44,569 nt of DNA from Escherichia phage BEU35. Positions 11,832 through 36,090 of the stretch are shown here, one piece after another (the first letter of the stretch is position 1; every line of letters begins with the position of its first letter). Made by a program: the position numbers and the translations under genes. The notes below the pieces were generated by a model that worked only from the letters and a program-made list of their open reading frames with translations, was not told where the DNA came from and did no database searches. The stretch lies in the sequence record OM632668.1; one strand, given 5' to 3'.

Positions 11832-14163
11832 TGTAGCTAGTTTAGTAGTAAAAGTAACAGAGCAAGGCGCGAAAGCCACATCAGACCGTCTTGACAACCT
11901 TTCAAAGTCCGCAAAAGTAGCGGGGGCCGCCGTAGCAGGCCTTGCTTCTATCGTAGCGGCTACCGCGTATAAAGCTGCCCAAGAACTGGTTGACTCACAG
12001 CGGCAACTGGACAAGATGTCCGCCAGTTTGAAGACCTTAACAGGAAGTACCCAAGGTGCTAAACAGGCGCTAAGTATCCTGCAAGATTTTGCCCGCGATA
12101 CCCCATACGGACTGGAGCAGGCGGTGGAAGGCTTCCGTAAGCTGGTGGCCCTTGGCCTTACCCCATCCGAGGAGGCGTTGCGGTCCTACGGCAATACCGC
12201 ATCGGCTATGGGCAAGGACCTTAATCAGATGATTGAGGCGGTAGCCGACGCCAGTACGTTTGAGTTCGAACGCCTAAAAGAATTCGGCATCAAAGCCAAG
12301 CAGAACAAAAACGACGTAGAGTTTACATTCCAGGGGACAACAACCGTAGTTAAGAAAAGCGCTGCCGATATTGAGCAGTATTTACTTAATATTGGTAACG
12401 TAAATTTTGCCGGTGCCATGGCGGACCAGGCCAACACCCTTAATGGCGCTATCGCGAGCGCCAGTGACTCATGGTCGCAGCTAAAAATGACGCTTGCCAC
12501 CAGTCTTGATGTTGGCGCACTTGCGGAACCTATCAGGTATATCGATGACTTGATCCAGGAATTAAACGCGTCTGTTGCTTCCGGTGAATTAGCCGCTGAA
12601 ATGCAGATGTGGGGCGACATAGCGTCGGAAGTAGGAAGCGCTATCGAGATGTCATTCGACGCTGCGTTTGGCTTTGTTGGTGATGCCATCAACGGGCTTA
12701 ATGAACTGTGGGATTTCAGCAGCAAGAGTATTACCGATAGCGGAGAACAAACGGCCACCACCATCGCTGAATCCGCCGCCGATGCTCTTGACTTCATCGC
12801 GGAAGAGTTCACCGCGATGGAGAGATTCTTTGAAGATATGGTTAAAGGTGCTCAGGACGCTGGCCGTCTTGTACGCGCCGCTTTTACCCCCGGGGAATCA
12901 GTAGACGTAGCTAAAAATATCAACTTCCAGCTTGGCATGGCTTTGGATACCCAGCGCGATGTCGCCGACGTTACGCGTAAAAGTTTCCGCGAACAGGTAG
13001 AAGCTCAACAGGATATTGTAGCGTTAAAACGCGCGGCGTATGACATCGATAAGGAGTCCGCAAAAGCTGAGGGGTTAAACAAATTTAAGGTAACCGGAAC
13101 CGGCGGCGGTTCTGACGATGACGGGTCAGCCGCAAAAGCCGCTAAGAAAGCAGCGGACGCGTTCGAGCGCCAGAAAAAGGCGGCGGAAGACTTCTACTAT
13201 CAGTCAATCCATCTTAATGATGACGTATTTCAGAAAATAGAAGCTAACCAGGAAGAGCAACTGTCTAAGTTGCAGGATTTTTATAGCAATAAGCTTCTTA
13301 GCGACCAACAGTACGAAAACGCCAAGACGCAGATTATGCTCTCTGCCGAACAGGCCCGCCAGGAAGAACTGGACAAGAAAAGGAAAGAAGCCCAGGAGAA
13401 GCAGCAGAAAGGTGATGATTTCATGGCTCAGATTATGGGCCAGAACGCCGCTGAGCTTGAGCTTCTCGACATCCAGGAACAGCAGAAACTGGCGGTCGCA
13501 GATAAGTACCGTGAGCAAGGGCTTATTAGTGAGAAGCAGTATCAGGCTGCGCTTAATGCCATCAACGAGCAGTACGCCACGAAGCGTGCCGACGCAACGG
13601 CAACGGCCTTCGGTAACATGGCCTCAAACATCGGGTCTGCGTTGGGCGAAGCCTCTGGTGCGTATAAGGCATTCGCTATCGTACAGGCCACCATAGCCAC
13701 TTACACCGCGGCTATCGAGGCGTACAAGTCCACGGCGGCTATCCCTGTAGTTGGCCCATTCCTGGCTCCTGTAGCTGCCGCCGCTGCCGTTGGGGCGGGT
13801 ATGGCGCAGATTTCCGCTATCAGGTCCGCACGTGAACAGGGCGGACAGTTATCCGCGGGGCAGGCTTCAACCATCGCCGAACGCGGTAAACCAGAAGTTA
13901 TCATGCCCGCTGGTGCGTCACGTGTACGCACCGCACAGCAGATGAAAGAAATTATGGGGCAAAACGGGTCTTCTTCCGGACCGTCTAATGTTACTATCGT
14001 AAACAACACGAGTTCTCAAATCGGCAACGTATCCACTGAGCAAGATGATGAAGGCCGTTTGCGTATCATCATCGAGGAGCAAGTGGCTGCCTCTTTGCAG
14101 AACAGTAACAGTAAGATTAGCAAGGCCCGCAAGGCCACAAGAAATGCGCCGGGGTTTAAATAA
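11824..14163 (+). CDS. tail tape measure protein
   Basis: 779 aa, long alpha-helical/coiled-coil composition, Gly/Ala-rich segment, position after G/T. Confidence 0.8.
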   Translation: MADVASLVVKVTEQGAKATSDRLDNLSKSAKVAGAAVAGLASIVAATAYKAAQELVDSQRQLDKMSASLKTLTGSTQGAKQALSILQDFARDTPYGLEQAVEGFRKLVALGLTPSEEALRSYGNTASAMGKDLNQMIEAVADASTFEFERLKEFGIKAKQNKNDVEFTFQGTTTVVKKSAADIEQYLLNIGNVNFAGAMADQANTLNGAIASASDSWSQLKMTLATSLDVGALAEPIRYIDDLIQELNASVASGELAAEMQMWGDIASEVGSAIEMSFDAAFGFVGDAINGLNELWDFSSKSITDSGEQTATTIAESAADALDFIAEEFTAMERFFEDMVKGAQDAGRLVRAAFTPGESVDVAKNINFQLGMALDTQRDVADVTRKSFREQVEAQQDIVALKRAAYDIDKESAKAEGLNKFKVTGTGGGSDDDGSAAKAAKKAADAFERQKKAAEDFYYQSIHLNDDVFQKIEANQEEQLSKLQDFYSNKLLSDQQYENAKTQIMLSAEQARQEELDKKRKEAQEKQQKGDDFMAQIMGQNAAELELLDIQEQQKLAVADKYREQGLISEKQYQAALNAINEQYATKRADATATAFGNMASNIGSALGEASGAYKAFAIVQATIATYTAAIEAYKSTAAIPVVGPFLAPVAAAAAVGAGMAQISAIRSAREQGGQLSAGQASTIAERGKPEVIMPAGASRVRTAQQMKEIMGQNGSSSGPSNVTIVNNTSSQIGNVSTEQDDEGRLRIIIEEQVAASLQNSNSKISKARKATRNAPGFK

Positions 14164-24626: not shown

Positions 24627-24758
24627 TCATTCCAGCACCCACAGATAAATTGTTACTAACATACCTAATACGGCAACCATCATGCCGTATTGACCCTCGT
24701 GACAGTAGACACCGGCGGCGAATCCCGCCAGTACCGCAATAATCAGTTTACTTGGCAT
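24627..24758 (-). CDS. small hydrophobic membrane peptide (43 aa, below ORF-track cutoff)
   Basis: Translation MPSKLIIAVLAGFAAGVYCHEGQYGMMVAVLGMLVTIYLWVLE; overlaps the 3' end of the polymerase gene. Confidence 0.3.
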   Translation of the reverse strand: MPSKLIIAVLAGFAAGVYCHEGQYGMMVAVLGMLVTIYLWVLE

Positions 24759-27000
24759 ATCGCTTCATCTCCGCACCTTCAGCTACAAGAGGGAACCCCT
24801 CCGCCCATTCCGGCAATTCGCACATCAACCGCTCAAGCTCTGCTACATTGTATTCCGGTGAATCTGGTGTCTCGCAGATAATCTCATCGTGTACGTGAAG
24901 TACAATCGGGTAGCCGTTTGCTTCTACGTTCAGCAGGGCATTAGCCAGCAAATCACGGCACAATGCCTGAGTGCAGTTTTCCACCAGTTTACCCGAGTAG
25001 GTGTACTGGAACCCCCACTGACGGGTTAGCTGATTTTCGCCCTGGTACTTAATGCGCACGTTAGTAGACACCTTCCCGTCTCCATCTGTTTCTTTCGACA
25101 CGCTCAACCCGACGCCCGGATAAGACATAACGCGACCCGACGGCAACGTCATGCGCAACCACCAACCAGCGACTTTGTTGCCGTTGTTGTCCGTTTCTAC
25201 GTTACGCGAAAACTTAACACCCCGCGGTCCCGCAGTGAACTCTTTACCTGGATTGCGGATAGCCGCCATAGCCGCGTCTTCAATATCACGCCAGAAAGCT
25301 ACTGTTTCCGGGTGTGACTCACGCCACATGCGCTTGATAGCGTCGCAGGTACGCCACACTTTCTTATCAAGAATATACGATGGTCGGTCATCCTTTTCAC
25401 CTGGCCGCGGAGGTCGCTTGGCTTCCTGAATACGTGCCCATTCATAGCCGCGTGCAGTAGCGGCCCATATATGGTTGGGGAATGTCCCGTCCATTGTTTT
25501 TGCCATATCAACCAGGTTTAAGCCGAGGTTCTTAGCAAACTGAACGAAAGCACCGACACCACCAGCATAGCCAAGGCCCAATTCACATGCTTTACCTATC
25601 TGGCGTAGGTCACTACGGCTTTCGAGAATGTAATCAGGGTCCATGCCGAACATCTTACCCGCGGTTACACAGTAAATATCCAATCCCGCACGGAAGGTAT
25701 CGAGAGCGGTTTCTTCTCCCGCCAGCCATGCCAACCCGCGACCTTCAACGTTAGAGTAATCAGCTACGACAAACTTACGCCCGGCTTCCGGTATGATGCA
25801 GCTACGCACCGTCGATGCCGTTAGCTTGGCTACATCGAAACGGCGATGCGCGCGGCCTTTAAACAACAGGTCGATTCCGTAGGACAATGGGTGTGTTACT
25901 CTCCACCAGTCCTTCTCTGACATCCAGTCATAACGTACTTTCTTCTTTTTATTCTTCGGGTCGTCATGATAGTACCCGCGCGCCAGGTTCTGTGGCTGGA
26001 AGCCTTTACCCGCGAACCGTAACGTACGCTTTGCCCCACCGTACTGGATACAACCGCGGCGTCGGTCGTCCGACGAGCGGCCTAACAGCAGCGGGTTATA
26101 TTTCGTGGACGCTGTTGACGCGGCCCCGAGGCGCATTTCGATAATCGTGCGGGCGTCGTCAGGTAAATCATCATCGGCCAGCAGGTCATTCAGCGTCGAC
26201 TTCTGTGCGTTGTGTATGCGGTGTGCGGGGGCCAGTTCACGTAGAATAGGCAGAAAGTCCTTACCGGTAAGCGAGCCGCCGTATTTACGTTGAGCTTCTT
26301 CCTGTAACTGTGCCTTGTGCTTCTCTACGGCTTCAATCGCGGCTTCCGCCAGTGCGACGTCAACCTTAAATCCGCGGTCGTTGATTAACTGGTCAAGTTC
26401 CAGTACACGGTCTTCGAACTCGGAGTTACCCCAACGCGGCAGCTTATGGAAGACTTCACGCATCGCAGTGATGTCGCTCACGGCGTACCTGATGAACATC
26501 GCCCACTCGTCAGGGTGAGTTTCTGCGGTGTAGCGGCGGATTTTGTAGTTCTTCGGCGTCGGTTTAGAGAAACGCTTAATCAGAGCCTTGCCGCGTTTAT
26601 CTTTCGCGTTGTCTGCAGACACGCCCAGCACTTCGCACAGCGCATCAAGAGAACCCGGCAGCGCGTGACGGAACGCCCAAATCATAGTATCAATGGTGTT
26701 ACTTACCGGAATATCAAAGCCCCAGCAGTGTTTCATGATTAGGCGATCGAAAAGTCCACCGTTGTGCCATACCATCTTAATGCGACTGTTTGGCTTAACC
26801 AGACGGCGTAGAGCGCGGTGTAAATCCACGGGCATATCACTGCCGTCGGTGCAATCCCATACCTGTACAGGCTCGTCGTCAAAAGCGTAGGTACAGATAA
26901 GCACTTCGGTAGTTGGATGCTCGGCGTAAGCATAGGAGCCGACTTTCTTCAAATCGGCTTCGGAGAATGTTTCAAAGTCTAAGTAAAGCAATGTGTTCAT
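24748..27000 (-). CDS. family-A DNA polymerase with N-terminal 3'-5' exonuclease domain
   Basis: Exo I LDFETFS, motif A-like DYSNVEGR, motif B-like RQIGKACELGLGYAGG, motif C HVHDEI; ATGA coupling to upstream gene. Confidence 0.85.
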   Translation of the reverse strand: MNTLLYLDFETFSEADLKKVGSYAYAEHPTTEVLICTYAFDDEPVQVWDCTDGSDMPVDLHRALRRLVKPNSRIKMVWHNGGLFDRLIMKHCWGFDIPVSNTIDTMIWAFRHALPGSLDALCEVLGVSADNAKDKRGKALIKRFSKPTPKNYKIRRYTAETHPDEWAMFIRYAVSDITAMREVFHKLPRWGNSEFEDRVLELDQLINDRGFKVDVALAEAAIEAVEKHKAQLQEEAQRKYGGSLTGKDFLPILRELAPAHRIHNAQKSTLNDLLADDDLPDDARTIIEMRLGAASTASTKYNPLLLGRSSDDRRRGCIQYGGAKRTLRFAGKGFQPQNLARGYYHDDPKNKKKKVRYDWMSEKDWWRVTHPLSYGIDLLFKGRAHRRFDVAKLTASTVRSCIIPEAGRKFVVADYSNVEGRGLAWLAGEETALDTFRAGLDIYCVTAGKMFGMDPDYILESRSDLRQIGKACELGLGYAGGVGAFVQFAKNLGLNLVDMAKTMDGTFPNHIWAATARGYEWARIQEAKRPPRPGEKDDRPSYILDKKVWRTCDAIKRMWRESHPETVAFWRDIEDAAMAAIRNPGKEFTAGPRGVKFSRNVETDNNGNKVAGWWLRMTLPSGRVMSYPGVGLSVSKETDGDGKVSTNVRIKYQGENQLTRQWGFQYTYSGKLVENCTQALCRDLLANALLNVEANGYPIVLHVHDEIICETPDSPEYNVAELERLMCELPEWAEGFPLVAEGAEMKRYAK

Positions 27001-27275
27001 AGTCTGTACCACGTCTGATAGTCTGCTTCTGTGAGATGGTCGTCGCGATCTTGTTTCTTGTTTTTACCGCGTTCTATGATTTCTGCCCAAGTCCGGTCTG
27101 GGTCTGTGTCTTCTATTAAATGTTTATGCTCCTCGCATGCATAGTGTTTATACCAGTCTCGTACACCGTAAGCTGGAGGGTATTTAGTCATCCAAATTGC
27201 TCTAACTTTTTTACCTTCTGCCTTACAAAATTTGCAGTATGTGATGCGTCTGTATCTCTTAAGTTCCGCTGCCAT
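26997..27275 (-). CDS. small Cys/His-containing hypothetical protein (possible zinc binding)
   Basis: CKFCK ... CEEHKH pattern. Confidence 0.45.
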   Translation of the reverse strand: MAAELKRYRRITYCKFCKAEGKKVRAIWMTKYPPAYGVRDWYKHYACEEHKHLIEDTDPDRTWAEIIERGKNKKQDRDDHLTEADYQTWYRL

Positions 27276-27334: not shown

Positions 27335-27958
27335 TTAACGGCGGCGACGTTCGCGACGCGGTGCGTCTTCTTCGTCGTCTTCCAGGTCATCGACGCTTGC
27401 AGCTACTTTAGAACCACCGAACGCTTTACCTTCGCCTACGTATTTAATCGCCAGCAGGTTAACGCCGAGGACTTTATATTTCTGGCTGAACCAGATTTCT
27501 ACGCTTACGTTAGCAACGCAGCCGCTGTAAACCTGTTCACCTTCAATCTGTTCACCGTCTACATTGAAGTCCTGCTCTACCTGAGTCTCGCCTTTTTTAG
27601 AGGTTACAATCAGCGGTTGTTTCTGTGCCTTCGCTTTGAAGTAGAAGCCTTCCGGGAAGTCTTCAAACGGATTGTCGCGCTCGGCAATGTCTTTAATCGC
27701 GCATTTATCCATGTGCTTACCTTCACCGTAGTTGGACTTCATCCATTTCTCGGCAGCGGCTGCGCCTAACGCTTCTTCAACTACAGCGTAAACGGTGTCG
27801 TAGAGTGCATCGATTTGAGCATGGTCAGACGGCAGGATGATAGTCGCGCTGTACTGGCCTTTAGTGATTGAGCCATCATCGTTTTCACGGTCTTTTTCAC
27901 GTTCAAATACGTTAACCCATGCAGTGTTTACTTTACGCAGATTCAGTTTAATACCCAT
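27335..27958 (-). CDS. putative ssDNA-binding protein (DUF2815-like), acidic stretch then basic RRERRRR tail
   Basis: Location between Cas4-like exonuclease and polymerase; DDLEDDEEDA followed by RRERRRR. Confidence 0.45.
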   Translation of the reverse strand: MGIKLNLRKVNTAWVNVFEREKDRENDDGSITKGQYSATIILPSDHAQIDALYDTVYAVVEEALGAAAAEKWMKSNYGEGKHMDKCAIKDIAERDNPFEDFPEGFYFKAKAQKQPLIVTSKKGETQVEQDFNVDGEQIEGEQVYSGCVANVSVEIWFSQKYKVLGVNLLAIKYVGEGKAFGGSKVAASVDDLEDDEEDAPRRERRRR

Positions 27959-28026
27959 CGTGATTTCTCGCTTTTCAGTTTATATTTCAAAGTTTACTCC
28001 GGGAAGCTGCCCGGCCAGTGATTAGA

Positions 28027-28055
28027 ACTATAATAGCTAACTATTCAGGTGTCAA
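28027..28055 (-). promoter_or_regulatory. sigma70-like promoter (TTGACA-N17-TATAGT)
   Basis: Read on minus strand: ttgaca cctgaatagttagctat tatagt. Confidence 0.5.
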
Positions 28056-28244
28056 ATAAAATTTTGCAATAGGGATTATGTTCTCGAAATTAAGCATATT
28101 GGCCGGTTCGAACTCATCCTCTACAGGGTAGTATCGCATCATGGTACCGTTCAAGAACGTGAACGATTCCGAGTGTAGATACCCATCCCAGTGCCATACC
28201 ATCAAAAAATCTTTATCAGTCGGCATTTCATTTACTTGAATCAT
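28041..28244 (-). CDS. small hypothetical protein
   Basis: GGAGGA RBS 6 nt upstream; ATGA overlap with the exonuclease stop. Confidence 0.4.
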   Translation of the reverse strand: MIQVNEMPTDKDFLMVWHWDGYLHSESFTFLNGTMMRYYPVEDEFEPANMLNFENIIPIAKFYLTPE

Positions 28245-29482
28245 TCTAAATCCTCCTCTGTAACTTGATTCCACTCAGGACGTTTGTCATCCGCCGTTGC
28301 GACGCATGGCGCACCGGGCTTACGGGTAATGAAGTCTTTCAGTTCTTCTTCCGGTACAATTTTAACCGCTTCGGTCGGTGTCATAAGAACTACCTTTTGC
28401 AGCATAGTACCGTACTTCTCGAATACTGCATCGGTATCTTTCCACGCACGATTACCCGGGCGTCCTTCAACCAGTTTATACCCCGGCACTTTCTTACCGG
28501 AATGTAACGCAGCAGCCATAGCTTTCTCAACCTTGTCGATGTGCTGGCGCAACAACGGCAACTTCTCATACTCAGCTACGAGTTGCTCTGGCGTAAGCTC
28601 AAGTGCAAAGTCGTCCTCCAGTTCTTCCGCCAGCCCCGCGTTAACGGTTTTTGTACGCGCTGCGCATTGTTCAGAGAACCGACACCACTGACAACCATCT
28701 ACCGACGGCTTGAAGTCCGACGCTTTCAGGTTCTTTTTACCCCGGAAATAGGCATCAAGAGCCAACAGCGCCCGTTTCTGTGCAAACTTAGCGAACAGTT
28801 CCAGACCTTCAACCGAGATGTCCCACTCCGATGCACCGCCAGCGTACGGCTGGAAGATGACCAGTCGAACGGTTGTTATGCTATAACGTCTCTTGAGTCG
28901 GCGATAAACGCCGAGAGCATAAAGCATAAGCTGCTTGTTTTCTTTCGCTTCGACACGATGCCGCCCGGTTTTCAGGTCGCAGATGATAAGCATGTGTTCG
29001 TCGGTGTTAGCCAGTTCCTGTATGGCAACAAGGTCAGCAGTTCCGAACGTCTCAACGCCTTCATACCCCGGATGCAATACCTCAGTAAGATTAACACGCA
29101 TTTCCAGCTTGGCGTAAGTCGCTATATCGATAATCGCCTTGCAGTAGTCGGTGTACTTGCGCACCTGCTCAATCATGTCCGCCGTAATCAGTACCGCGCC
29201 TTTCATCGGGCTGATTAGTGCCTTAATCTGGCCTTTGCCTTCATCCAGCACGTAAGCACCGACTTCACGCTCTAACGGCAGCGCAGTTCCGCGAATATAA
29301 GCGTTGAGATGGACCTCAGCTATGGTGTGCATTGCCGTGCCTAATACAGCGGCTTTACCTGACGTGTTAGGGATATCTTTTTCACAGGCCAGTGATGCCG
29401 CGCAACTTAGCCACTTTTTAGCCCCTGACGGCGACAGTAAGGCATGTACATCGTTATTGCCGCCGCGTTCTTTAAGAATCAT
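28241..29482 (-). CDS. PD-(D/E)xK exonuclease, Cas4/DUF2800-like, with C-terminal Cys cluster
   Basis: RecB-nuclease-like core with CQWCRFSEQC; ends in TEEDLE. Confidence 0.65.
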   Translation of the reverse strand: MILKERGGNNDVHALLSPSGAKKWLSCAASLACEKDIPNTSGKAAVLGTAMHTIAEVHLNAYIRGTALPLEREVGAYVLDEGKGQIKALISPMKGAVLITADMIEQVRKYTDYCKAIIDIATYAKLEMRVNLTEVLHPGYEGVETFGTADLVAIQELANTDEHMLIICDLKTGRHRVEAKENKQLMLYALGVYRRLKRRYSITTVRLVIFQPYAGGASEWDISVEGLELFAKFAQKRALLALDAYFRGKKNLKASDFKPSVDGCQWCRFSEQCAARTKTVNAGLAEELEDDFALELTPEQLVAEYEKLPLLRQHIDKVEKAMAAALHSGKKVPGYKLVEGRPGNRAWKDTDAVFEKYGTMLQKVVLMTPTEAVKIVPEEELKDFITRKPGAPCVATADDKRPEWNQVTEEDLE

Positions 29483-29841
29483 CGTAAACTCTCCAAATAC
29501 AAGTTTAATGCCTGTAACTGTTCTTCTGTAGGAATGAAAGAATCATCGCGATGTAAGTCGCTTAACTGTTGCAACATTCCTGCGAACTGACGTCTTGCGT
29601 CAACAGCGTCCATGTGATGCTTTTCACTTTTATATATTAATGTTTTCGGGTAATCCTCAAGCCTGCCAGACGATTTATTCACGCGGAGCGCACGAGCTTC
29701 ATGCACAATGTGAATGTACTTTTTGCCGTTTTGTAACACAGTAGCTACGCCGCTGCTCTTTCTGCGGTCGCCGACTGTGTAAACCTTGTCGCCACTACGC
29801 AGATTAAGCCACCATTTATCGGTCATACCCTGTTCTCCCAC
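29479..29841 (-). CDS. hypothetical protein
   Basis: Operon context. Confidence 0.4.
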   Translation of the reverse strand: MGEQGMTDKWWLNLRSGDKVYTVGDRRKSSGVATVLQNGKKYIHIVHEARALRVNKSSGRLEDYPKTLIYKSEKHHMDAVDARRQFAGMLQQLSDLHRDDSFIPTEEQLQALNLYLESLR

Positions 29842-30095
29842 TGGTCAATTAAATGTCGTGTCTGGTGCTGGCAGTGCATGGCCCAGCTATACATCGACTC
29901 GAAGACATAAAAGTCAGGCTTGGCAAAAGTCGTGCGCTTAATCTGCGACACGTGACGGCCTATATCTTTGGGCCTGGGTACTTTGCCTAAGTACGCCATC
30001 TCTTCCATCTGGTGCGCACCGGAAGGAGCGCGCAATAGCCATAGAGCCTCCGTGTTATCCCGTCGGTCAATACCTCGGTAGAGTTGGTAAATCAT
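29823..30095 (-). CDS. hypothetical protein
   Basis: Operon context. Confidence 0.35.
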   Translation of the reverse strand: MIYQLYRGIDRRDNTEALWLLRAPSGAHQMEEMAYLGKVPRPKDIGRHVSQIKRTTFAKPDFYVFESMYSWAMHCQHQTRHLIDQWENRV

Positions 30096-30137
30096 ATTAC
30101 GACCCTCTGTTAAAGCGGCCAGAAGGCCGCGGGATAG

Positions 30138-30641
30138 TTATTCTTCTTCGAAATACTTGTTCTTAATCGCCGTCAGGCGTTTCAGGTATTCAGCCAGGTC
30201 TTCGTCTTTAATCGCGGCAATCTTCATTTTCTTACCGGTGAACTCCTCCAGCAGTTCATCGGAATCGTCGCACGCAGCATCGCTAGGACCTTCGTTAATT
30301 GCATCGTCGATAGCCTGAATCTGGTCACGAAGAGACTGGTAATCGACCTCTTCTTTCTCTTCTTCTGGTTCTGGAGTCGGCTCCTCTACTTTAGCTTTAC
30401 GCGGCTTGCGTTTCGGCTTCTCTTCTTCTTCTGCTGGTTTAGCGTCAACGATGTCTTCACCTTCAACAGGGATTTCTTTTGTTGCTTCTTTTTCGCACTC
30501 AGCTACCGCTTCTTTGGTATACACTACCGTCTCTACTTCTAACGGCGCTGCAACTTGTGCTGACTGTTTCGCACTGTTCGCAGCAATCAGTTCATGTGCA
30601 ACTACGAAACGTTCCAGTAATTTTAAGAATTGTTCTAACAT
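30138..30641 (-). CDS. highly acidic hypothetical protein
   Basis: E/D-rich with internal KPKRKPRKAK; second gene of leftward early operon. Confidence 0.5.
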   Translation of the reverse strand: MLEQFLKLLERFVVAHELIAANSAKQSAQVAAPLEVETVVYTKEAVAECEKEATKEIPVEGEDIVDAKPAEEEEKPKRKPRKAKVEEPTPEPEEEKEEVDYQSLRDQIQAIDDAINEGPSDAACDDSDELLEEFTGKKMKIAAIKDEDLAEYLKRLTAIKNKYFEEE

Positions 30642-30663
30642 TTGTTTCTCCTGTTTATTTAGG

Positions 30664-30891
30664 TTACTCGCCGTCGCCTTCTGTAAGGCTATCGTCTATT
30701 AATTCAAATTTACCGTTTGAGTGTTGGATAGCTTCTTGCCCGCAATGGTCGCAAACCACCAGTTTATCGAATCCGTCAAACTCGTCCCCGACTACGCAAG
30801 AAAGTACAAATTTATGTTTTGTACATACTTCTTGATGTTCACCGAAAATTACCCGGAAACATTTAGTTATAGCTCCAGTGATTATGTTCAT
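30664..30891 (-). CDS. small Cys/His-rich protein, paralog A
   Basis: Near-identical core to ORF 35878..36090 (QEVCT-HKFVLSCVVGDEFDGFDKL-VCDHCGQEAIQHSNGKFELI). Confidence 0.55.
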   Translation of the reverse strand: MNIITGAITKCFRVIFGEHQEVCTKHKFVLSCVVGDEFDGFDKLVVCDHCGQEAIQHSNGKFELIDDSLTEGDGE

Positions 30892-30919
30892 ATCTTCACC
30901 TCTCGTTTGGTATGGGCTA

Positions 30920-30949
30920 ACTATAATAGCGAACTATTCATGATGTCAA
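30920..30949 (-). promoter_or_regulatory. sigma70-like promoter (TTGACA-N18-TATAGT) for leftward early operon
   Basis: Read on minus strand: ttgaca tcatgaatagttcgctat tatagt. Confidence 0.5.
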
Positions 30950-31013
30950 TGGGCTTTTCTAAAATAATTAATATGGTACTATTCACACATCAACTGACTA
31001 AGGAGTAATTGAC

Positions 31014-31229
31014 ATGCAACCATCCGAACTAGGCATCCGTGTAGAGCAACGCCGTAAAGAACTCGGCATCTCCCAGCGCCGTCTGGCGGTCCTGACCGGC
31101 GTTTCCCAGGGCGCAATTAACCAGCTGGCTCTCGGTGTAACTCAGGACGTCCGCCCGGCAACGTTGTTTAAACTGGCGGAAGTGCTGGAAGTAGACGCTA
31201 AGTGGCTGGCGTTCGGTGAAGGGGCTTGA
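31014..31229 (+). CDS. XRE-family helix-turn-helix transcriptional regulator (Cro/CI-like)
   Basis: ISQRRLAVLTGVSQGAINQL HTH signature. Confidence 0.65.
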   Translation: MQPSELGIRVEQRRKELGISQRRLAVLTGVSQGAINQLALGVTQDVRPATLFKLAEVLEVDAKWLAFGEGA

Positions 31230-31247
31230 CGCCCCTTTCTTTTTATT
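31219..31247 (+). terminator. intrinsic terminator overlapping the regulator stop codon
   Basis: GGGGC-ttgac-GCCCC followed by TTTCTTTTTA. Confidence 0.55.
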
Positions 31248-31440
31248 GCACCTTTATCGGGTATCTTTTGCGAAACTTACCTAACCCGCAGTACACGCTG
31301 TAAGCCTCTGTGTAACTGAACACAACATGATACCCGCGCCCATAAGGAACTACGTTAAGAACTTCTACTACTTCGCCTCTGTGGTTGGTGTATTTATTAC
31401 CTTTCAGTTCGTCGCTTACTTCTTTAAATTTACCGCTCAT
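31243..31440 (-). CDS. small hypothetical protein
   Basis: GGAGGA RBS; ATGA overlap with primase stop. Confidence 0.4.
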   Translation of the reverse strand: MSGKFKEVSDELKGNKYTNHRGEVVEVLNVVPYGRGYHVVFSYTEAYSVYCGLGKFRKRYPIKVQ

Positions 31441-33704
31441 TCCAAATCCTCCTCTGTCACTGTCAACATTTCATTCGGTTCGTATATTGTCTTTGGAATC
31501 TTGTTATCAGTTATTCTGGTGTTCAGCCTGTAACGACCTGGGATTATCTGATTGTTTTCGTCAGTACCCGGAACAAGATACCCGGCCTCAACCATTTTCT
31601 TAATCTTCCCGCGTTCTATGGCTTCTTTGGAGTTAAACGCCTTTGCGTTGGGGTCTGACTGTGCGAGCTTATTCGCCGCGGCGACTGTGATGCCTTCGTT
31701 GCCGTTGTAGGTTCCTTCCGCCAGTTCAAACGCCGCGAGTATCGTGGCCTCCGAACTGTTGACGGCGTTCTCTACGGTTTTACGTACATTTTCTTTACCT
31801 TCTTTCGTCAACCCTTCTTCCCGCTCTTTCTCCTCGTCAGTTTTGAACGGCTCGAAACCCCACGGCATCAACACAAGCGCCTTGTGTGGTTCAGGCAGGT
31901 CCAGGTTTACGATTGTGCCGTATTCCTCTGTGCTACCCAGGAACTCAACCGCTCGGTATTCTTTAGGTGGCGGCGCTTCACGGAACTGTACCGACTCCAG
32001 CACCATGCCAACCGTCTTCTGCTGAGGCCCGTGCTTGAATTTCGAGTGATATACGTTTATCTGACGGTCGGTTGCACGTTCGATTGTCAGTTCCACATCA
32101 ACACCCGCATACAGCGCCCCACTGCCGCGTGCTTTCTTTCCACCCTTCGGCGTATGGTGGACAACGCCTACTGCGGCTTTAGTTGCATCGCGTACTTCTT
32201 TCAGAATGGCGATAACTTTACCCATGCCGATTGCTGTTGATGAACTGTTCTCGTCGAACTTATCAATCGTCAGTGCCAGGGTCTGGTTAAGGGTGTCGAA
32301 CGCAACCATGCCAATTGGCTCGTCGCCAGCAGTTTCGCGCATTAACTTAATCAGGCTTTTAAGTTTGCCGACTTCGCCCATATCGATGACATGTACATAA
32401 TCTTTACCTTCCTCGCCGTATTTAGCCGCGAGCGCATCAATACGTGTACGTGTGGCTGCCCCACCCTCGCCGTCGATATAGAAATGGTGACAACGCTGGG
32501 TGTCAGCCCCTGCAAACCGGTATCCGGCGGCGCTCAGGTACATCATCCCCAGCGTATAGAATGATTTGTACGTGCCCGATTCTCCGACGATACCCCAGAT
32601 ACAATCCGACGGCATGTACCCCTCAACGACGAAATCAGCCTTTACCGGCTCCGGTAACTCGTCCTCCTCTGAGTCCTCGTCGTCTTCCAGGTCGTCGAGG
32701 CTGCATGAGACAGATTCACGCGCCCCCCAACCGATGGCCTCTGCGACTTCACTGAACGGCAGCCCGGTCGCATCGCACGCGTACTTCCACACCTCTTTCG
32801 GTGACAGGCCTTCTGTCGCCGTAATGTCTGTGTCGTGAATCATGGTTACGTTTGGCGCTTCATACCCCTCGCGCGGGAAGCACAGCAGGAAGTCGTCCGG
32901 GCGCGGTGTCGGGTCGCTGTAGTTTTCAGCATGTTCCGGTGTGGCTGGCATCTTAAGGCCGCGCGGCGTCATGACGCCGCCGTACTCAAACGCCAGTGCT
33001 TCAAACGCGTCTGTAAACGCGGTGCGCAGTTCTTCCGGTATCTGGTAATCCGATGCGCTGCTAACGTCAACGGCTGGGATGCCTTCCAGTAACTCGTTCG
33101 GGTCGATCAGGTCGTTGCGGCGCGACCAGATAACGGTAGCGCCGACCGGCGGCAGGTACATCGGCTGCGACAGAGTGAACCCGCTGCGGTCCGCACCCAT
33201 GCCTTTGAAGAAGTGCTCCAGCAACCCATGACGAACACGGATGATATCACCACCCTCAACTGGGCGGGCCAGCGGCATGACGACGCGAAAGCGAGGCGAC
33301 TCATCGGTATGTGATGCCGTGGTGTAGAGACACATCGCCCGGCGGCTGCGATTAACCAGGCGCACCGCTTCCTGGTACTCTTCCGGTGTTGCACTGTCGA
33401 AGTCCAGATACGCCAGCGACGATTTGCTCACAGACGCGTCACAGCGATAGAAGAAGCCTTTACGCGCTTGTTTAAAGCCACCGGTTTCCGGGTCTTTTAC
33501 GGTGCTGTGTGTAGAATCGCACGCGGCCGTGATATAACCGGGCGCAGTCTTGGGGTTAATCCCGTCACGAACGGCATCGAGCGGCTGGATTAACTCTTTC
33601 AGGTCGTCCAGTGTTGCCGTGTGTGCGGTTCTGACATTTATATCCTTTTTCCCCGCCCGCGCGTTGCGGCGTGACCACGAGTAGGATAAAATTACATCGG
33701 ACAT
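31437..33704 (-). CDS. DNA primase/helicase-like replication protein (central P-loop ATPase)
   Basis: Walker A GESGTYKS, acidic linker DDLEDDEDSEEDE, 755 aa, ends in TEEDLE. Confidence 0.65.
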   Translation of the reverse strand: MSDVILSYSWSRRNARAGKKDINVRTAHTATLDDLKELIQPLDAVRDGINPKTAPGYITAACDSTHSTVKDPETGGFKQARKGFFYRCDASVSKSSLAYLDFDSATPEEYQEAVRLVNRSRRAMCLYTTASHTDESPRFRVVMPLARPVEGGDIIRVRHGLLEHFFKGMGADRSGFTLSQPMYLPPVGATVIWSRRNDLIDPNELLEGIPAVDVSSASDYQIPEELRTAFTDAFEALAFEYGGVMTPRGLKMPATPEHAENYSDPTPRPDDFLLCFPREGYEAPNVTMIHDTDITATEGLSPKEVWKYACDATGLPFSEVAEAIGWGARESVSCSLDDLEDDEDSEEDELPEPVKADFVVEGYMPSDCIWGIVGESGTYKSFYTLGMMYLSAAGYRFAGADTQRCHHFYIDGEGGAATRTRIDALAAKYGEEGKDYVHVIDMGEVGKLKSLIKLMRETAGDEPIGMVAFDTLNQTLALTIDKFDENSSSTAIGMGKVIAILKEVRDATKAAVGVVHHTPKGGKKARGSGALYAGVDVELTIERATDRQINVYHSKFKHGPQQKTVGMVLESVQFREAPPPKEYRAVEFLGSTEEYGTIVNLDLPEPHKALVLMPWGFEPFKTDEEKEREEGLTKEGKENVRKTVENAVNSSEATILAAFELAEGTYNGNEGITVAAANKLAQSDPNAKAFNSKEAIERGKIKKMVEAGYLVPGTDENNQIIPGRYRLNTRITDNKIPKTIYEPNEMLTVTEEDLE

Positions 33705-33762
33705 GTTGTATTTCCTTCAGCAAGTAATTTGGCCTCGGCGTTCACCGCGTCGGGGCTTTCTT

Positions 33763-33996
33763 TTATTCCAGGTCTTCTAAAGTAGCGGTCATTCCGCGAA
33801 CTTCAGCAAAGGCACTATATTTCCCGCCAACATTTTTCACGACGCCAGATTTAACCAGCACTTTTAACGACCCTTCAATAATGACGGAACTATAGTACTT
33901 AAAATAACTGCGGCGCAAGTCGATAACGCTGCACGACCCTTTTTTACGTGTCAACGAAACGACCGCCGTAAATACGCGTGACTGAAACTCGGTCAT
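33763..33996 (-). CDS. small hypothetical protein ending in TLEDLE
   Basis: Operon context; C-terminal motif shared with exonuclease and primase. Confidence 0.4.
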   Translation of the reverse strand: MTEFQSRVFTAVVSLTRKKGSCSVIDLRRSYFKYYSSVIIEGSLKVLVKSGVVKNVGGKYSAFAEVRGMTATLEDLE

Positions 33997-34599: not shown

Positions 34600-34628
34600 T
34601 TGCACACCCCAACATAATAGGATACTAT
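34600..34628 (+). promoter_or_regulatory. sigma70-like promoter (TTGCAC-N17-TACTAT)
   Basis: Hexamer spacing read from sequence; shares aataggNtactattca with promoters near 30977 and 35841. Confidence 0.4.
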
Positions 34629-34662
34629 TCACTTATCGAAACGAGACAGAGGAGTGAGGGTT

Positions 34663-35817: not shown

Positions 35818-35846
35818 TTGCACGCTAAGATAGAATAGGCTACTAT
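35818..35846 (+). promoter_or_regulatory. sigma70-like promoter (TTGCAC-N17-TACTAT) for rightward early operon
   Basis: Hexamer spacing read from sequence; GAGAGGAG RBS precedes first gene. Confidence 0.45.
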
Positions 35847-35877
35847 TCATTTACACAAACGAGAGGAGAGACAGAAG

Positions 35878-36090
35878 ATGAATGTAGTGGCGAGATGTTT
35901 TCACGCAATTTTCGGCGCACCGCAAGAAGTATGCACTAACCATAAATTTGTACTTTCTTGCGTGGTGGGGGATGAGTTTGATGGGTTCGATAAACTTATT
36001 GTCTGTGACCATTGCGGGCAAGAAGCTATACAACACTCAAACGGTAAATTCGAACTAATTAACGAGGAAGGGGATGGGGATGGTGAGTAG
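35878..36090 (+). CDS. small Cys/His-rich protein, paralog B
   Basis: Paralog of 30664..30891 in inverted orientation. Confidence 0.55.
   Translation: MNVVARCFHAIFGAPQEVCTNHKFVLSCVVGDEFDGFDKLIVCDHCGQEAIQHSNGKFELINEEGDGDGE

Follow-up and report, generated by a model that had tools for sequence, protein, structure and literature searches.

Organization of the replication module

The window, that is, the whole stretch of 44,569 nucleotides analysed here (sequence record OM632668.1), comes from the Escherichia phage BEU35 of the genus Kagunavirus. Its replication genes, together with two small ORFs coupled to them, comprise the following features:

24748..27012, minus strand: family A DNA polymerase, 754 aa (Pfam PF00476, PF01612), candidate receptor on the model of T7 gp5
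27335..27958, minus strand: T7-type SSB (gp2.5/Enc34-like, DUF2815), 207 aa (Pfam PF10991, E=1e-15; PHROG 112; PDB 4JG2, E=2e-4)
27338..27364, minus strand: basic end of the SSB, APRRERRRR (sequence)
27380..27397, minus strand: SSB motif copy SVDDLE, directly C-terminal to the OB fold (..AFGGSKVAA-SVDDLE-DDEED; sequence)
28041..28244, minus strand: p67 (phrog_6314), a small ORF whose translation is coupled to that of the exonuclease (ORF list; PHROG)
28241..28265, minus strand: 25-nt repeat copy 1, with tail codons, Shine-Dalgarno AGGAGG and ATGA overlap with p67 (repeat search)
28241..29482, minus strand: DUF2800/PD-(D/E)XK (Cas4-like) exonuclease, 413 aa (Pfam PF10926, E=1e-67, PF12705; PHROG 69, exonuclease)
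28244..28261, minus strand: exonuclease tail motif TEEDLE, ACA GAG GAG GAT TTA GAA (sequence)
31243..31440, minus strand: p65 (phrog_36357), a small ORF whose translation is coupled to that of the primase-helicase (ORF list; PHROG)
31437..31461, minus strand: 25-nt repeat copy 2, with tail codons, Shine-Dalgarno site and ATGA overlap with p65 (repeat search)
31437..33704, minus strand: primase-helicase of 755 aa, its AAA_25 helicase domain spanning residues 351-522 (Pfam PF13481; PHROG 3228, replicative helicase-primase)
31440..31457, minus strand: primase-helicase tail motif TEEDLE, ACA GAG GAG GAT TTG GAA (sequence)
32685..32702, minus strand: internal motif copy of the primase-helicase, C-SLDDLE-DDEDS, residue 335, in the primase/helicase interdomain linker (sequence)
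33763..33996, minus strand: p77, 77 aa, phrog_5169 (ORF list; PHROG)
33766..33783, minus strand: p77 tail motif TLEDLE, ACT TTA GAA GAC CTG GAA, without a Shine-Dalgarno (SD) site or an overlapping gene

Three of these minus-strand genes end in a C-terminal EDLE, namely those of the DUF2800 exonuclease (...NQVTEEDLE), the primase-helicase (...LTVTEEDLE) and p77 (...MTATLEDLE). Over all six frames of the window this tetrapeptide occurs three times, each time immediately 5' of a stop codon, and the probability of finding one and the same C-terminal tetrapeptide on any three of 69 long non-overlapping ORFs is about 1.2e-5; chance is thus excluded as the source of the shared tail. The original prediction of a common T-x-E-D-L-E tail on three replication-module proteins was confirmed at the level of both ORFs and C-termini. 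The broader pattern [ST]x[DE]DL[DE] has five occurrences in the six frames, all within replication genes: the C-termini of the exonuclease (TEEDLE), primase-helicase (TEEDLE) and p77 (TLEDLE), the SSB (SVDDLE) and the primase-helicase linker (SLDDLE). The latter two copies had been missed in the original prediction. The SSB had been described there as carrying a basic tail (RRERRRR), and a basic end is indeed present, but the acidic SVDDLE sits 14 residues ahead of the C-terminus. Since the SSB holds the same acidic motif, the model moves from an acidic tail meeting a basic SSB tail to client proteins mimicking the tail of the SSB.

The motif is specific to this set of proteins. Among 14,449 ORFs of 75 related loci, 169 terminate in it, of which 162 are orthologues of the exonuclease, primase-helicase or p77, the remaining seven forming one additional small-protein family of the Otaku-like group that ends in ..TATDEDLE.

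Conservation of the peptide and its nucleotide context

About 150 related loci retain [ST]-[DE]-x-D-L, encoded in 23-25 different ways. In the exonuclease, [ST][DE]xDL is kept in 72 of 74 orthologues, 23 nucleotide versions encoding eight peptides with an invariant D-L, and the tail is retained at 44-56% identity. The primase-helicase tail is retained in 69 orthologues and in 10 of the 12 full-length representatives of 50% clusters, down to about 30% identity; here 25 nucleotide versions yield seven peptides, again with D-L invariant, and in alignment A3 D741 is invariant and L742 nearly so. The relatives that retain the tail at these identities are Otaku-like phages, members of Dhillonvirus and Eiauvirus, and a further 11 metagenomic loci. 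All 22 p77 orthologues end in T/S-[LP]-EDLE, with neither an overlap nor an SD site. Absence of the motif from orthologues would have refuted the original prediction; instead, the tail persists in exonucleases of as little as 44% identity and in primases of about 30%. In distant lineages A, N or M often takes the place of the S/T, but the core of acidic and hydrophobic residues stays.

Two of the tails share more than the peptide. The sequence GAGGAGGATTTRGAATGA is found exactly twice in the window (28241-28258 and 31437-31454; 0.02 occurrences expected from shuffles), and the match extends to 25 nt with 92% identity (23/25). At both copies AGGAGG lies 7 nt upstream of an ATG that overlaps the TGA stop of the exonuclease or primase-helicase gene (ATGA), and the same 4-nt overlaps appear in the annotation of phage Golestan. 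Where a small gene adjoins, the E-E-D codons are GAG GAG GAT, which provides the AGGAGG ribosome-binding site and the ATGA overlap and hence the coupling. Both the shared flanking nucleotides and their double use as ribosome-binding site and start of the next gene had been correctly recognized, and two of the three tails additionally drive translational coupling as a secondary role. The slot of p67 is occupied by different genes in different relatives, and at least seven unrelated small genes begin at the ATGA junction across relatives, so the junction is mosaic. Among the relatives compared, no downstream gene family is common to the junctions after the exonuclease and after the primase-helicase, and the remaining ATGA junctions of the same operon are preceded by unrelated peptides.

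The motif also occurs without the coupling element. Where an ATG overlaps, the exonuclease orthologues carry SD codons in 30 of 30 cases. Without an overlapping start codon, the motif is kept in 42 orthologues of the exonuclease and 52 of the primase; in 25 exonuclease orthologues SEEDLE has GAA GAA codons, the stop is TAA and a promoter comes next (for example, AGT GAA GAA GAT TTG GAA TAA). The third copy, as had been noted earlier, uses different codons: in p77 the motif is followed by TAA and a 58-nt gap. Because orthologues vary the codons and often have no overlapping downstream gene, the comparison of coding sequences shows that selection keeps the peptide, not the nucleotides alone, as originally proposed.

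The internal copies are conserved as well. In relatives the SSB motif takes the forms S[VT][DN]DLE, SDEDLG or TDDDL[DSG], and it is present in every lineage keeping client tails. The linker copy appears as C[ST]x[DE]DL in 44 of 71 primase orthologues and in a looser form in another 14, with D354 and L355 invariant in alignment A3; it could be a structural piece of the helicase domain, not a free motif.

Co-variation of the tails

Co-variation was assessed in 24 lineages carrying the duf2800-gp2.5-polA module, with exonuclease identity under 60%. The exonuclease tail scores 20.9 against the cognate SSB tail and 16.9 against non-cognate ones (z=5.6, p<=5e-5), in a permutation test that ignores phylogeny, several of the 24 lineages forming one "D-L" clade, so that independent events are fewer than n. 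Primase tails likewise fit the exonuclease tail of their own phage (permutation, kinship ignored; z=3.7, p=3e-4); their fit to the cognate SSB tail is not significant in the same lineage set (permutation, z=0.4). Co-varying pairs include SDFDDSLLN and NDFDDSLLG.. in L102, SAEDDFDKL and SAAEDDFDEL.. in P240, ADDFADVS..EDLV and EDEFDDIT..ADLV in BIP-1, and DDDDDEV and NDDEV in Stilesk, where the tail of the lineage is also found on TerS, a protein outside DNA metabolism. Across lineages, the hydrophobic residue of the tail (L, F, W or V) changes in concert among the proteins of one phage.

Discussion

Structures of related SSBs offer a framework for these observations. In the crystal of the Enc34 ORF6 SSB, the tail reaches across to the next molecule, where its traceable end fills the beta-sheet groove with a buried area of 842 A^2; similar contacts are reported for 4JG2, 4KLK and T7 gp2.5 (PMC5686142). 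The window SSB belongs to the same DUF2815 family as these proteins (5ODJ, 4JG2, 4KLK), and the segment following its OB fold appears to correspond to the part seen docked. The traceable Enc34 end is ..TSDAYD (5ODJ sequence, last 11 residues disordered), which, by residue counting (+/-2), appears to be the positional equivalent of SVDDLE and TEEDLE. However, the Enc34 contact is crystal packing between identical SSB molecules, and the window SSB has Leu where Enc34 has Tyr. As the probable equivalent of the SSB motif thus lies in a neighbouring SSB, mimicry of the SSB tail, which would dock client proteins on the SSB, the polymerase or both, is taken as the best reading.

The analogy with T7 gp4 and gp2.5 made in the original prediction holds well, the SSB being T7-type (PF10991). 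The acidic tails of T7 gp4 bind basic patches of gp5 (PMC12593628), and the gp2.5 tail anchors on the front basic patch of gp5 and, in an AF2 model, on its own groove too (PMC12339929); a single kind of tail making several contacts thus has a published parallel. As in T7, the SSB and the helicase-primase have in common a short acidic tail built around one key hydrophobic residue, which in the helicase-primase forms the very C-terminus. Unlike in T7, where a terminal aromatic Phe is critical, the hydrophobic residue is Leu at position -2; the motif also occurs on a PD-(D/E)XK exonuclease, the small p77 and the primase-helicase linker, and in the SSB it lies inside the chain, ahead of a basic run.

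Short docking peptides are known from other replication systems. The beta-clamp-binding motif QL[SD]LF and the C-terminal tails of T4 gp43, gp33 and gp55, which bind gp45, are borne by unrelated proteins contesting one acceptor site through one short, usually C-terminal peptide, as would be the case here; those motifs are, however, hydrophobic and unrelated in sequence, whereas the present one is acidic with a single Leu, and no clamp gene was seen in the replication module. The C-terminal tip of bacterial SSB, DDDIPF, is a docking peptide known from the SSB only, with the pockets on its clients. The SSB tail described here is likewise acidic-hydrophobic and putatively docking, but its clients carry the peptide, and the SSB itself ends in a basic run.

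Several other explanations deserve weighing. An unlikely one is that the family A DNA polymerase is the sole receptor, as in T7, its basic patches binding the acidic tails of the helicase-primase, the SSB, the exonuclease and p77, and that the SSB-SSB crystal contact is irrelevant. T7 gp4 and gp2.5 tails do bind the gp5 TBD and front basic patches, and the polymerase is always encoded beside the exonuclease and SSB and is the best conserved protein of the module in D-L-tail lineages (identity 62-66%; exonuclease 44-56%, primase about 31%). Yet neither an equivalent of the thioredoxin-binding domain nor a conserved basic patch was identified in the polymerase, and the sole conspicuous Lys-rich insertion of the window enzyme is missing in Otaku, eiAU, Stilesk, P240 and Salvo. 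Furthermore, a recombination exonuclease or p77 has no obvious reason to ride on the polymerase, and four independent crystal structures of T7-type SSBs show the tail in contact with the body of an SSB. Exonuclease, SSB, polymerase and primase always co-occur across lineages, so presence or absence of the genes is unable to separate SSB from polymerase as the receptor. Rather improbable is the absence of any common partner, each tail being a generic acidic DNA mimic that folds onto its own DNA-binding surface in autoinhibition; the likeness of the tails would then merely reflect, with the same low probability, the small sequence space of acidic tails. The tails are indeed short and D/E-rich, all carriers bind or process DNA, and tail-deleted T7 gp2.5 and Enc34 SSB bind DNA tighter or less specifically. 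The likeness nevertheless goes beyond charge, with S/T at position 1 and D-L at positions 4-5 fixed and the hydrophobic residues changing together; in Stilesk the tail of the lineage extends to TerS, and the motif is, but for the seven Otaku-like small ORFs, absent from all other ORFs of the 75 loci.

Two further readings are very improbable. The peptide could be a by-product of a nucleotide function, either SD and ATGA coupling or a recombination junction swapping downstream genes, in keeping with the 25-nt repeat, the SD codons of overlapping-ATG exonuclease orthologues and the mosaic junction. Against this, p77 orthologues keep the peptide in different codons with neither SD nor overlap, as do the SEEDLE exonucleases followed by a promoter and the 52 non-overlapping primases; the internal copies have no nearby start codon, other ATGA junctions of the operon carry other peptides, and the two junctions share no downstream gene family. 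As a sole explanation, nucleotide function is thereby largely refuted at the sequence level. The motif might, with an equally slight probability, be a modification or turnover signal, i.e., a phosphorylation target of acidophilic Ser/Thr kinases ([ST]-x-x-[DE]) or a stability tag of early proteins. S/T followed by acidic residues is the consensus of acidophilic kinases, which the invariant S/T and acidic residues match, and the extreme C-terminal position in three proteins would suit such a signal. On the other hand, the proteins scanned (Pfam, PHROG; part of the window) included no evident kinase or dedicated protease, distant lineages often have A, N or M for S/T with the acidic-hydrophobic core kept, and two copies are internal.

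We therefore consider it probable that [ST]-x-[DE]-D-L-[DE] is a selected short linear docking motif, a copy of the phage's own SSB tail motif; its docking function and the identity of the receptor are inferred by analogy, and the shared peptide is most likely a common docking tag, a variant of a mechanism known from phage T7. Client tails would bind where the SSB tail normally does, first of all on the concave beta-sheet of another SSB molecule, contacted in trans as in the Enc34 SSB crystal. T7 gp4 and gp2.5 suggest, by analogy, a second possible site, a basic patch of the family A polymerase. Docked in this way, the exonuclease would be held on SSB-coated DNA or at the replisome for recombination and end processing, as would the primase-helicase at the fork and p77, and competition with SSB-SSB contacts would permit hand-off.

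An acidic motif shared by replication proteins

The genome in the window is that of a Kagunavirus (Guernseyvirinae), called BEU33 here (OM632667, 100% identity). The original prediction held that three of its proteins share an acidic C-terminus: the Cas4-like exonuclease, the primase-helicase and p77, a 77-aa protein. EDLE occurs three times in the six reading frames of the window, each time immediately before a stop codon of one of these genes, and the probability that any three of the 69 long non-overlapping ORFs would have a common C-terminal tetrapeptide is about 1e-5; the three-ORF ending is therefore confirmed and not due to chance. These three copies are nevertheless not the full set, as [ST]x[DE]DL[DE] has five matches in the six-frame translation of the window, in replication genes only. 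Four proteins carry the motif, the primase-helicase twice:

28241-29482, minus strand: exonuclease (DUF2800/PD-(D/E)XK), ending ..QVTEEDLE
31437-33704, minus strand: primase-helicase, ending ..TVTEEDLE
33763-33996, minus strand: p77, ending ..TATLEDLE
27380-27397: SVDDLE of the SSB (T7-type gp2.5/Enc34-like protein), immediately following the OB fold, 14 residues from the C-terminus
32685-32702: SLDDLE in the primase-helicase linker
27338-27364, minus strand: basic end of the SSB, APRRERRRR, after the acidic motif

The last two motif copies had been missed, and the earlier description of the SSB tail as basic captures its extreme end but not the acidic SVDDLE that precedes it. Both the SSB and the linker copy continue with DDE[ED] (SVDDLE-DDEED and SLDDLE-DDEDS). 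They lie in a 29-nt direct repeat (27369-27397 and 32674-32702; 26/29 nt, or 90%, the same) encoding SVDDLEDDEE and SLDDLEDDED, respectively, and their nearly identical codons suggest either strong codon constraint or gene conversion between both genes. A winged-helix fold considered for p77 is unsupported, the single-sequence AF2 model reaching a pLDDT of 38.5 and a PDB sequence search returning no match.

Selection on the peptide and its overlap with translational starts

At the nucleotide level, the exonuclease and primase copies have GAGGAGGATTTRGAATGA in common (two occurrences against 0.02 expected), a repeat that widens to 25 nt at 92% identity. In both, the TGA stop and the ATG of the next small ORF overlap; this ORF is p67 (28041-28244) after the exonuclease and p65 (31243-31440) after the primase-helicase. 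AGGAGG stands 7 nt upstream of that ATG, within the 5-10 nt taken to mark translational coupling; the annotation of phage Golestan contains the same stop/start overlaps. The tail codons thus do double as ribosome-binding site and start of the next gene, as first proposed. The p77 copy is separated from its downstream neighbour by a 58-nt gap and has no Shine-Dalgarno (SD) sequence.

Across related loci, the tail outlasts this arrangement. Exonuclease orthologues carry [ST][DE]xDL in 72 of 74 loci, where 23 nucleotide versions encode eight peptides. SD codons are present in all 30 loci with an overlapping ATG, and 42 loci keep the motif without one; in 25 of these the codons are GAA GAA, the stop is TAA and a TTGACA promoter comes immediately after it. 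The primase motif is present in 69 loci (25 nucleotide versions, seven peptides), 52 of them without overlap, and that of p77 in 22/22 loci without SD or overlap. The D-L of the exonuclease and primase tails is invariant across nucleotide versions, and the peptide stays constant while codons, flanks and genomic context vary, as expected of a short linear motif. At further ATGA junctions of this operon, the preceding peptides are unrelated (..KENVK, ..LESLR, ..LVLVAK). The motif is kept without overlap and the other junctions differ in peptide; selection therefore acts on the tail peptide, as originally proposed from the different codons of the third copy. The opposite reading, in which the tail is a pure by-product of an SD/coupling element, accounts for the repeat at the first two copies, but is contradicted by the p77 copy, by the orthologues without overlap and by the internal copies. 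The ribosome-binding and start role of the repeat is secondary, SD use being an opportunistic choice of codons.

The ATGA junctions themselves (28241-28244 and 31437-31440) are mosaic hot spots among the related loci L001-L075. At least seven unrelated small gene families start at the overlapping ATG after the exonuclease and at least five after the primase, several of which look like membrane proteins. No family common to both junctions was found across these loci, and exchange of downstream cassettes through the 25-nt copies was rejected on this ground.

Conservation of the motif in related phages

A word-indexed homologue search with the exonuclease returned only matches at 94% identity or above, but the tail reaches much further. 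It is kept at 44-56% exonuclease identity (SDEDLS, TDEDLE, TDEDLSNE) and at about 30% primase identity (SDEDLNS, TDDDLKD; Otaku-like phages, Dhillonvirus, Eiauvirus), and 11 further metagenomic loci have it too. A library clustered at 50% identity contributed 12 full-length primase representatives, 10 of which carry the tail. The check proposed with the original prediction, a search of related phages for the terminal motif, therefore did not refute it. Among 14,449 ORFs of 75 loci, the C-terminal motif is found in 169, of which 162 are orthologues of the exonuclease, primase-helicase or p77. The remaining seven form one additional family of 63-68-aa proteins ending in ..TATDEDLE, encoded between SSB and polymerase in the Otaku-like group.

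The internal copies are conserved as well. The SSB motif takes the forms SVDDLE, SVNDLE, STDDLE, SDEDLG, TDDDLD and TDDDLS in relatives. In an alignment of 12 diverse primase-helicases, D and L of the linker copy, C-T-[DE]-x-D-L, are invariant, and the C-terminal copy has an invariant D and a nearly invariant L.

The ..TATDEDLE proteins (L051-L058, about 12390-12756, Otaku-like metagenomic phages) are an independent family that has acquired the tail. The SSBs of Dhillonvirus, Eiauvirus and Otaku-like phages (L051, L059, L076-L078) contain long alternating acidic and basic repeats, e.g., ..DEDDEDEEEERPRRRRR; such repeats, like the basic end in BEU33, are unusual for an SSB, the tail of which is normally purely acidic.

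Co-variation of exonuclease and SSB tails across lineages

For a broader comparison, 80 more loci spanning the DUF2800 family and named phages of several lineages were sampled. Lineage by lineage, exonuclease tails resemble the SSB tail of the same phage, and in more distant lineages of the module the tail has F, W, L, I or V at its end or close to it.

Table. Exonuclease and SSB tails in distant lineages
Phage or locus; exonuclease tail; SSB tail
Staphylococcus phage P240; ..SAEDDFDKL; ..SAAEDDFDELDTDDEDFL
L102 (comparison locus); ..SDFDDSLLN; ..NDFDDSLLGDVEDLL
Bordetella phage BIP-1; ..ADDFADVSGETVEDLV; ..EDEFDDITEGAAAADLV
Providencia phage Stilesk (Chi-like); ..DDDDDEV; ..NDDEV

In a permutation test on 24 lineages with less than 60% exonuclease identity, cognate exonuclease and SSB tails have a similarity of 20.9, shuffled pairs one of 16.9 (z=5.6, p<=5e-5), and primase tails co-vary with cognate exonuclease tails (z=3.7) but not significantly with SSB tails (z=0.4); the tests are uncorrected for phylogeny, and the independent events are therefore fewer than n. 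Other Stilesk proteins with the lineage's tail are gp03 (..DDDEEI), the helicase (..VWDDEE) and the primase (..SPFDDED); its small terminase subunit (L079, 10761-11369) ends in ..EDTEDDDDEV, the same acidic tail as that of its SSB and exonuclease, which hints that packaging proteins can also carry an SSB-like tail.

Comparison with known systems and a possible receptor

The analogy with T7 gp4 and gp2.5 drawn in the original prediction holds well. The BEU33 SSB is a gp2.5-type OB-fold protein (PF10991 Enc34_ssDNA-bd, E=1.1e-15; PHROG 112 Gp2.5-like; PDB 4JG2), and acidic tails occur on both the SSB (SVDDLE-DDEED) and the helicase-primase (TEEDLE, linker SLDDLE-DDEDS), in apparent similarity of chemistry and context. 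T7 tails, however, have a critical C-terminal Phe, whereas those of BEU33 end in L-E with the hydrophobic Leu at position -2, and in the SSB the motif is internal, a basic run coming after it and RRERRRR forming the end of the protein. The shared tail is therefore not a strict member of the T7 type. Clamp-binding motifs offer a similar topology of many clients and one site, but TEEDLE and TLEDLE have a single hydrophobic residue and no Gln, unlike the beta-clamp consensus QL[SD]LF or QLxLxL. In the bacterial SSB-Ct hub the motif belongs to the SSB alone, at its extreme C-terminus, whereas in BEU33 it is found on four proteins and the SSB is basic-ended. The duf2800-gp2.5-polA module has already been described (PMC8093625); neither this paper nor that on the Enc34 SSB (PMC5686142) mentions client tails, and our literature search, including gp2.5-like, exonuclease and C-terminal tail combined, found no description of the shared tail.

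In SSBs of the T7 type the acidic tail serves for docking: the tails of T7 gp2.5 and gp4 bind basic patches of the polymerase (PMC12593628, PMC12339929), and the gp2.5 tail is modelled by AF2 as lying in the protein's own groove (PMC12339929). In the crystal of Enc34 ORF6, the tail of which is reported to be disordered, the traceable tail end enters the concave beta-sheet of the molecule next to it, burying 842 A^2; similar tail contacts are reported in 4JG2, 4KLK and T7 gp2.5 (PMC5686142). The 5ODJ sequence ends in ..GEGRVDTSDAYDEDEDEWDEDEV and, minus the last 11 disordered residues, its traceable end is ..TSDAYD (residue count, +/-2). By this count, TSDAYD would correspond in position to SVDDLE in BEU33 and to TEEDLE and TLEDLE, the tails of the putative clients. 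The T7 precedent, the Enc34 contact and this equivalence together lead us to propose that the clients (exonuclease, primase-helicase and p77) mimic the SSB tail. Their tails would dock on the tail-acceptor site of the SSB, and possibly also on the polymerase as in T7, tethering the three proteins to SSB-coated DNA and allowing competitive hand-off.

It is possible that the polymerase is the only receptor, for which T7 provides the precedent. Gene co-occurrence, including a further locus search with the primase alignment, does not separate the two candidates because all module genes always travel together. A conserved basic patch or receptor loop was sought in the polymerase and none was found; the Lys-rich insertion DDPKNKKKKVRYDWMSEKDWWRV of the BEU33 family A polymerase (about 25906-25980, minus strand; residues about 345-368) was rejected as a receptor loop, being Kagunavirus-specific and absent from Otaku, eiAU-183, Stilesk, P240 and Salvo. 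Generic cis-acting acidic tails without a shared partner would fit the acidic character of the peptides, but they explain neither the fixed S/T..D-L nor the concerted change of the hydrophobic residue among the proteins of one phage. A modification or degradation signal is a weak alternative, as the S/T is lost in distant lineages. Mimicry of the SSB tail can be extended, tentatively and at rather less than even odds, to a lineage-specific, co-evolving "SSB-tail code" in phages with the duf2800-gp2.5-polA module: an acidic-hydrophobic peptide, defined by the tail of the SSB, would be copied onto whichever proteins have to work on SSB-coated DNA, namely onto the exonuclease, two sites of the primase-helicase, small DNA-associated proteins and, in Chi-like phages, even the terminase small subunit.

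Other features of the region

Two near-identical sigma-70-like promoters on the minus strand (28026-28055 and 30919-30949; TTGACA, 17/18 nt, TATAGT; 11/12 matches) sit in a 22-nt repeat, AACTATAATAGCTAACTATTCA, one ahead of the SSB gene and one ahead of the gene at 30891, with weaker copies at 34610-34631 and 35828-35849. In relatives without p67, this promoter directly follows the exonuclease stop. The promoters may represent an operator-containing early/middle family. A 171-nt inverted repeat (30692-30862 and 35895-36065, 85% complementarity) matches a pair of small, Cys-rich paralogues, one on the minus strand (30664-30891, 75 aa) and the other on the plus strand (35878-36090, 70 aa). The p77/primase gap contains a strong hairpin (33731-33757, 11 pairs) that scores as a plus-strand intrinsic terminator, the local genes being on the minus strand, and a similar bidirectional-looking terminator (31218-31238) lies between a cro-like gene and p65.

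The minus-strand gene at 30138-30641 encodes a highly acidic, Lys-rich protein of 167 aa (phrog_3127) with an aromatic-acidic C-terminus kept across lineages (KYFEEE in the window, KYYEEE in Otaku, TYFELED in YD-2008.s, EFFEFEEE in eiAU), possibly a docking tail of a second type. In Serratia phage Otaku, a second copy of the final ~30 residues of the DNA polymerase (..PSWERGFPLAAEGDIMYRYRK) is encoded by gp47 (L076, 18690-18881), a 63-aa ORF located upstream of the replication operon.

Significance

The phages with the duf2800-gp2.5-polA module form a large group in which replisome assembly is essentially unstudied; carriers of the module include Guernseyvirinae, Dhillonvirus, Chi-like phages, many Staphylococcus and Streptococcus prophages, and Bacteroides phages. 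The shared tail appears as a clean short-linear-motif network, with a function that we infer, in this very widespread replication module; it carries the "acidic tail" principle of T7 beyond two proteins, to a whole module, and a six-residue tag on SSB, primase-helicase, exonuclease and small accessory proteins provides a directly testable wiring diagram, with lineage-specific variants as natural specificity swaps for experiments. The tag also suggests a physical coupling of the exonuclease to the gp2.5-like annealing protein, comparable to that of lambda Exo and Beta. A small ORF of unknown function that ends with its lineage's SSB-like tail in a phage with this module is probably a replisome or SSB client. 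If the SSB-tail code is true, the T7-type SSB would be both donor and acceptor of a private interaction network coupling replication, recombination and packaging, and the divergence of the DL, DF, DW and DEV lineage types would prevent cross-talk with co-infecting phages or the host.
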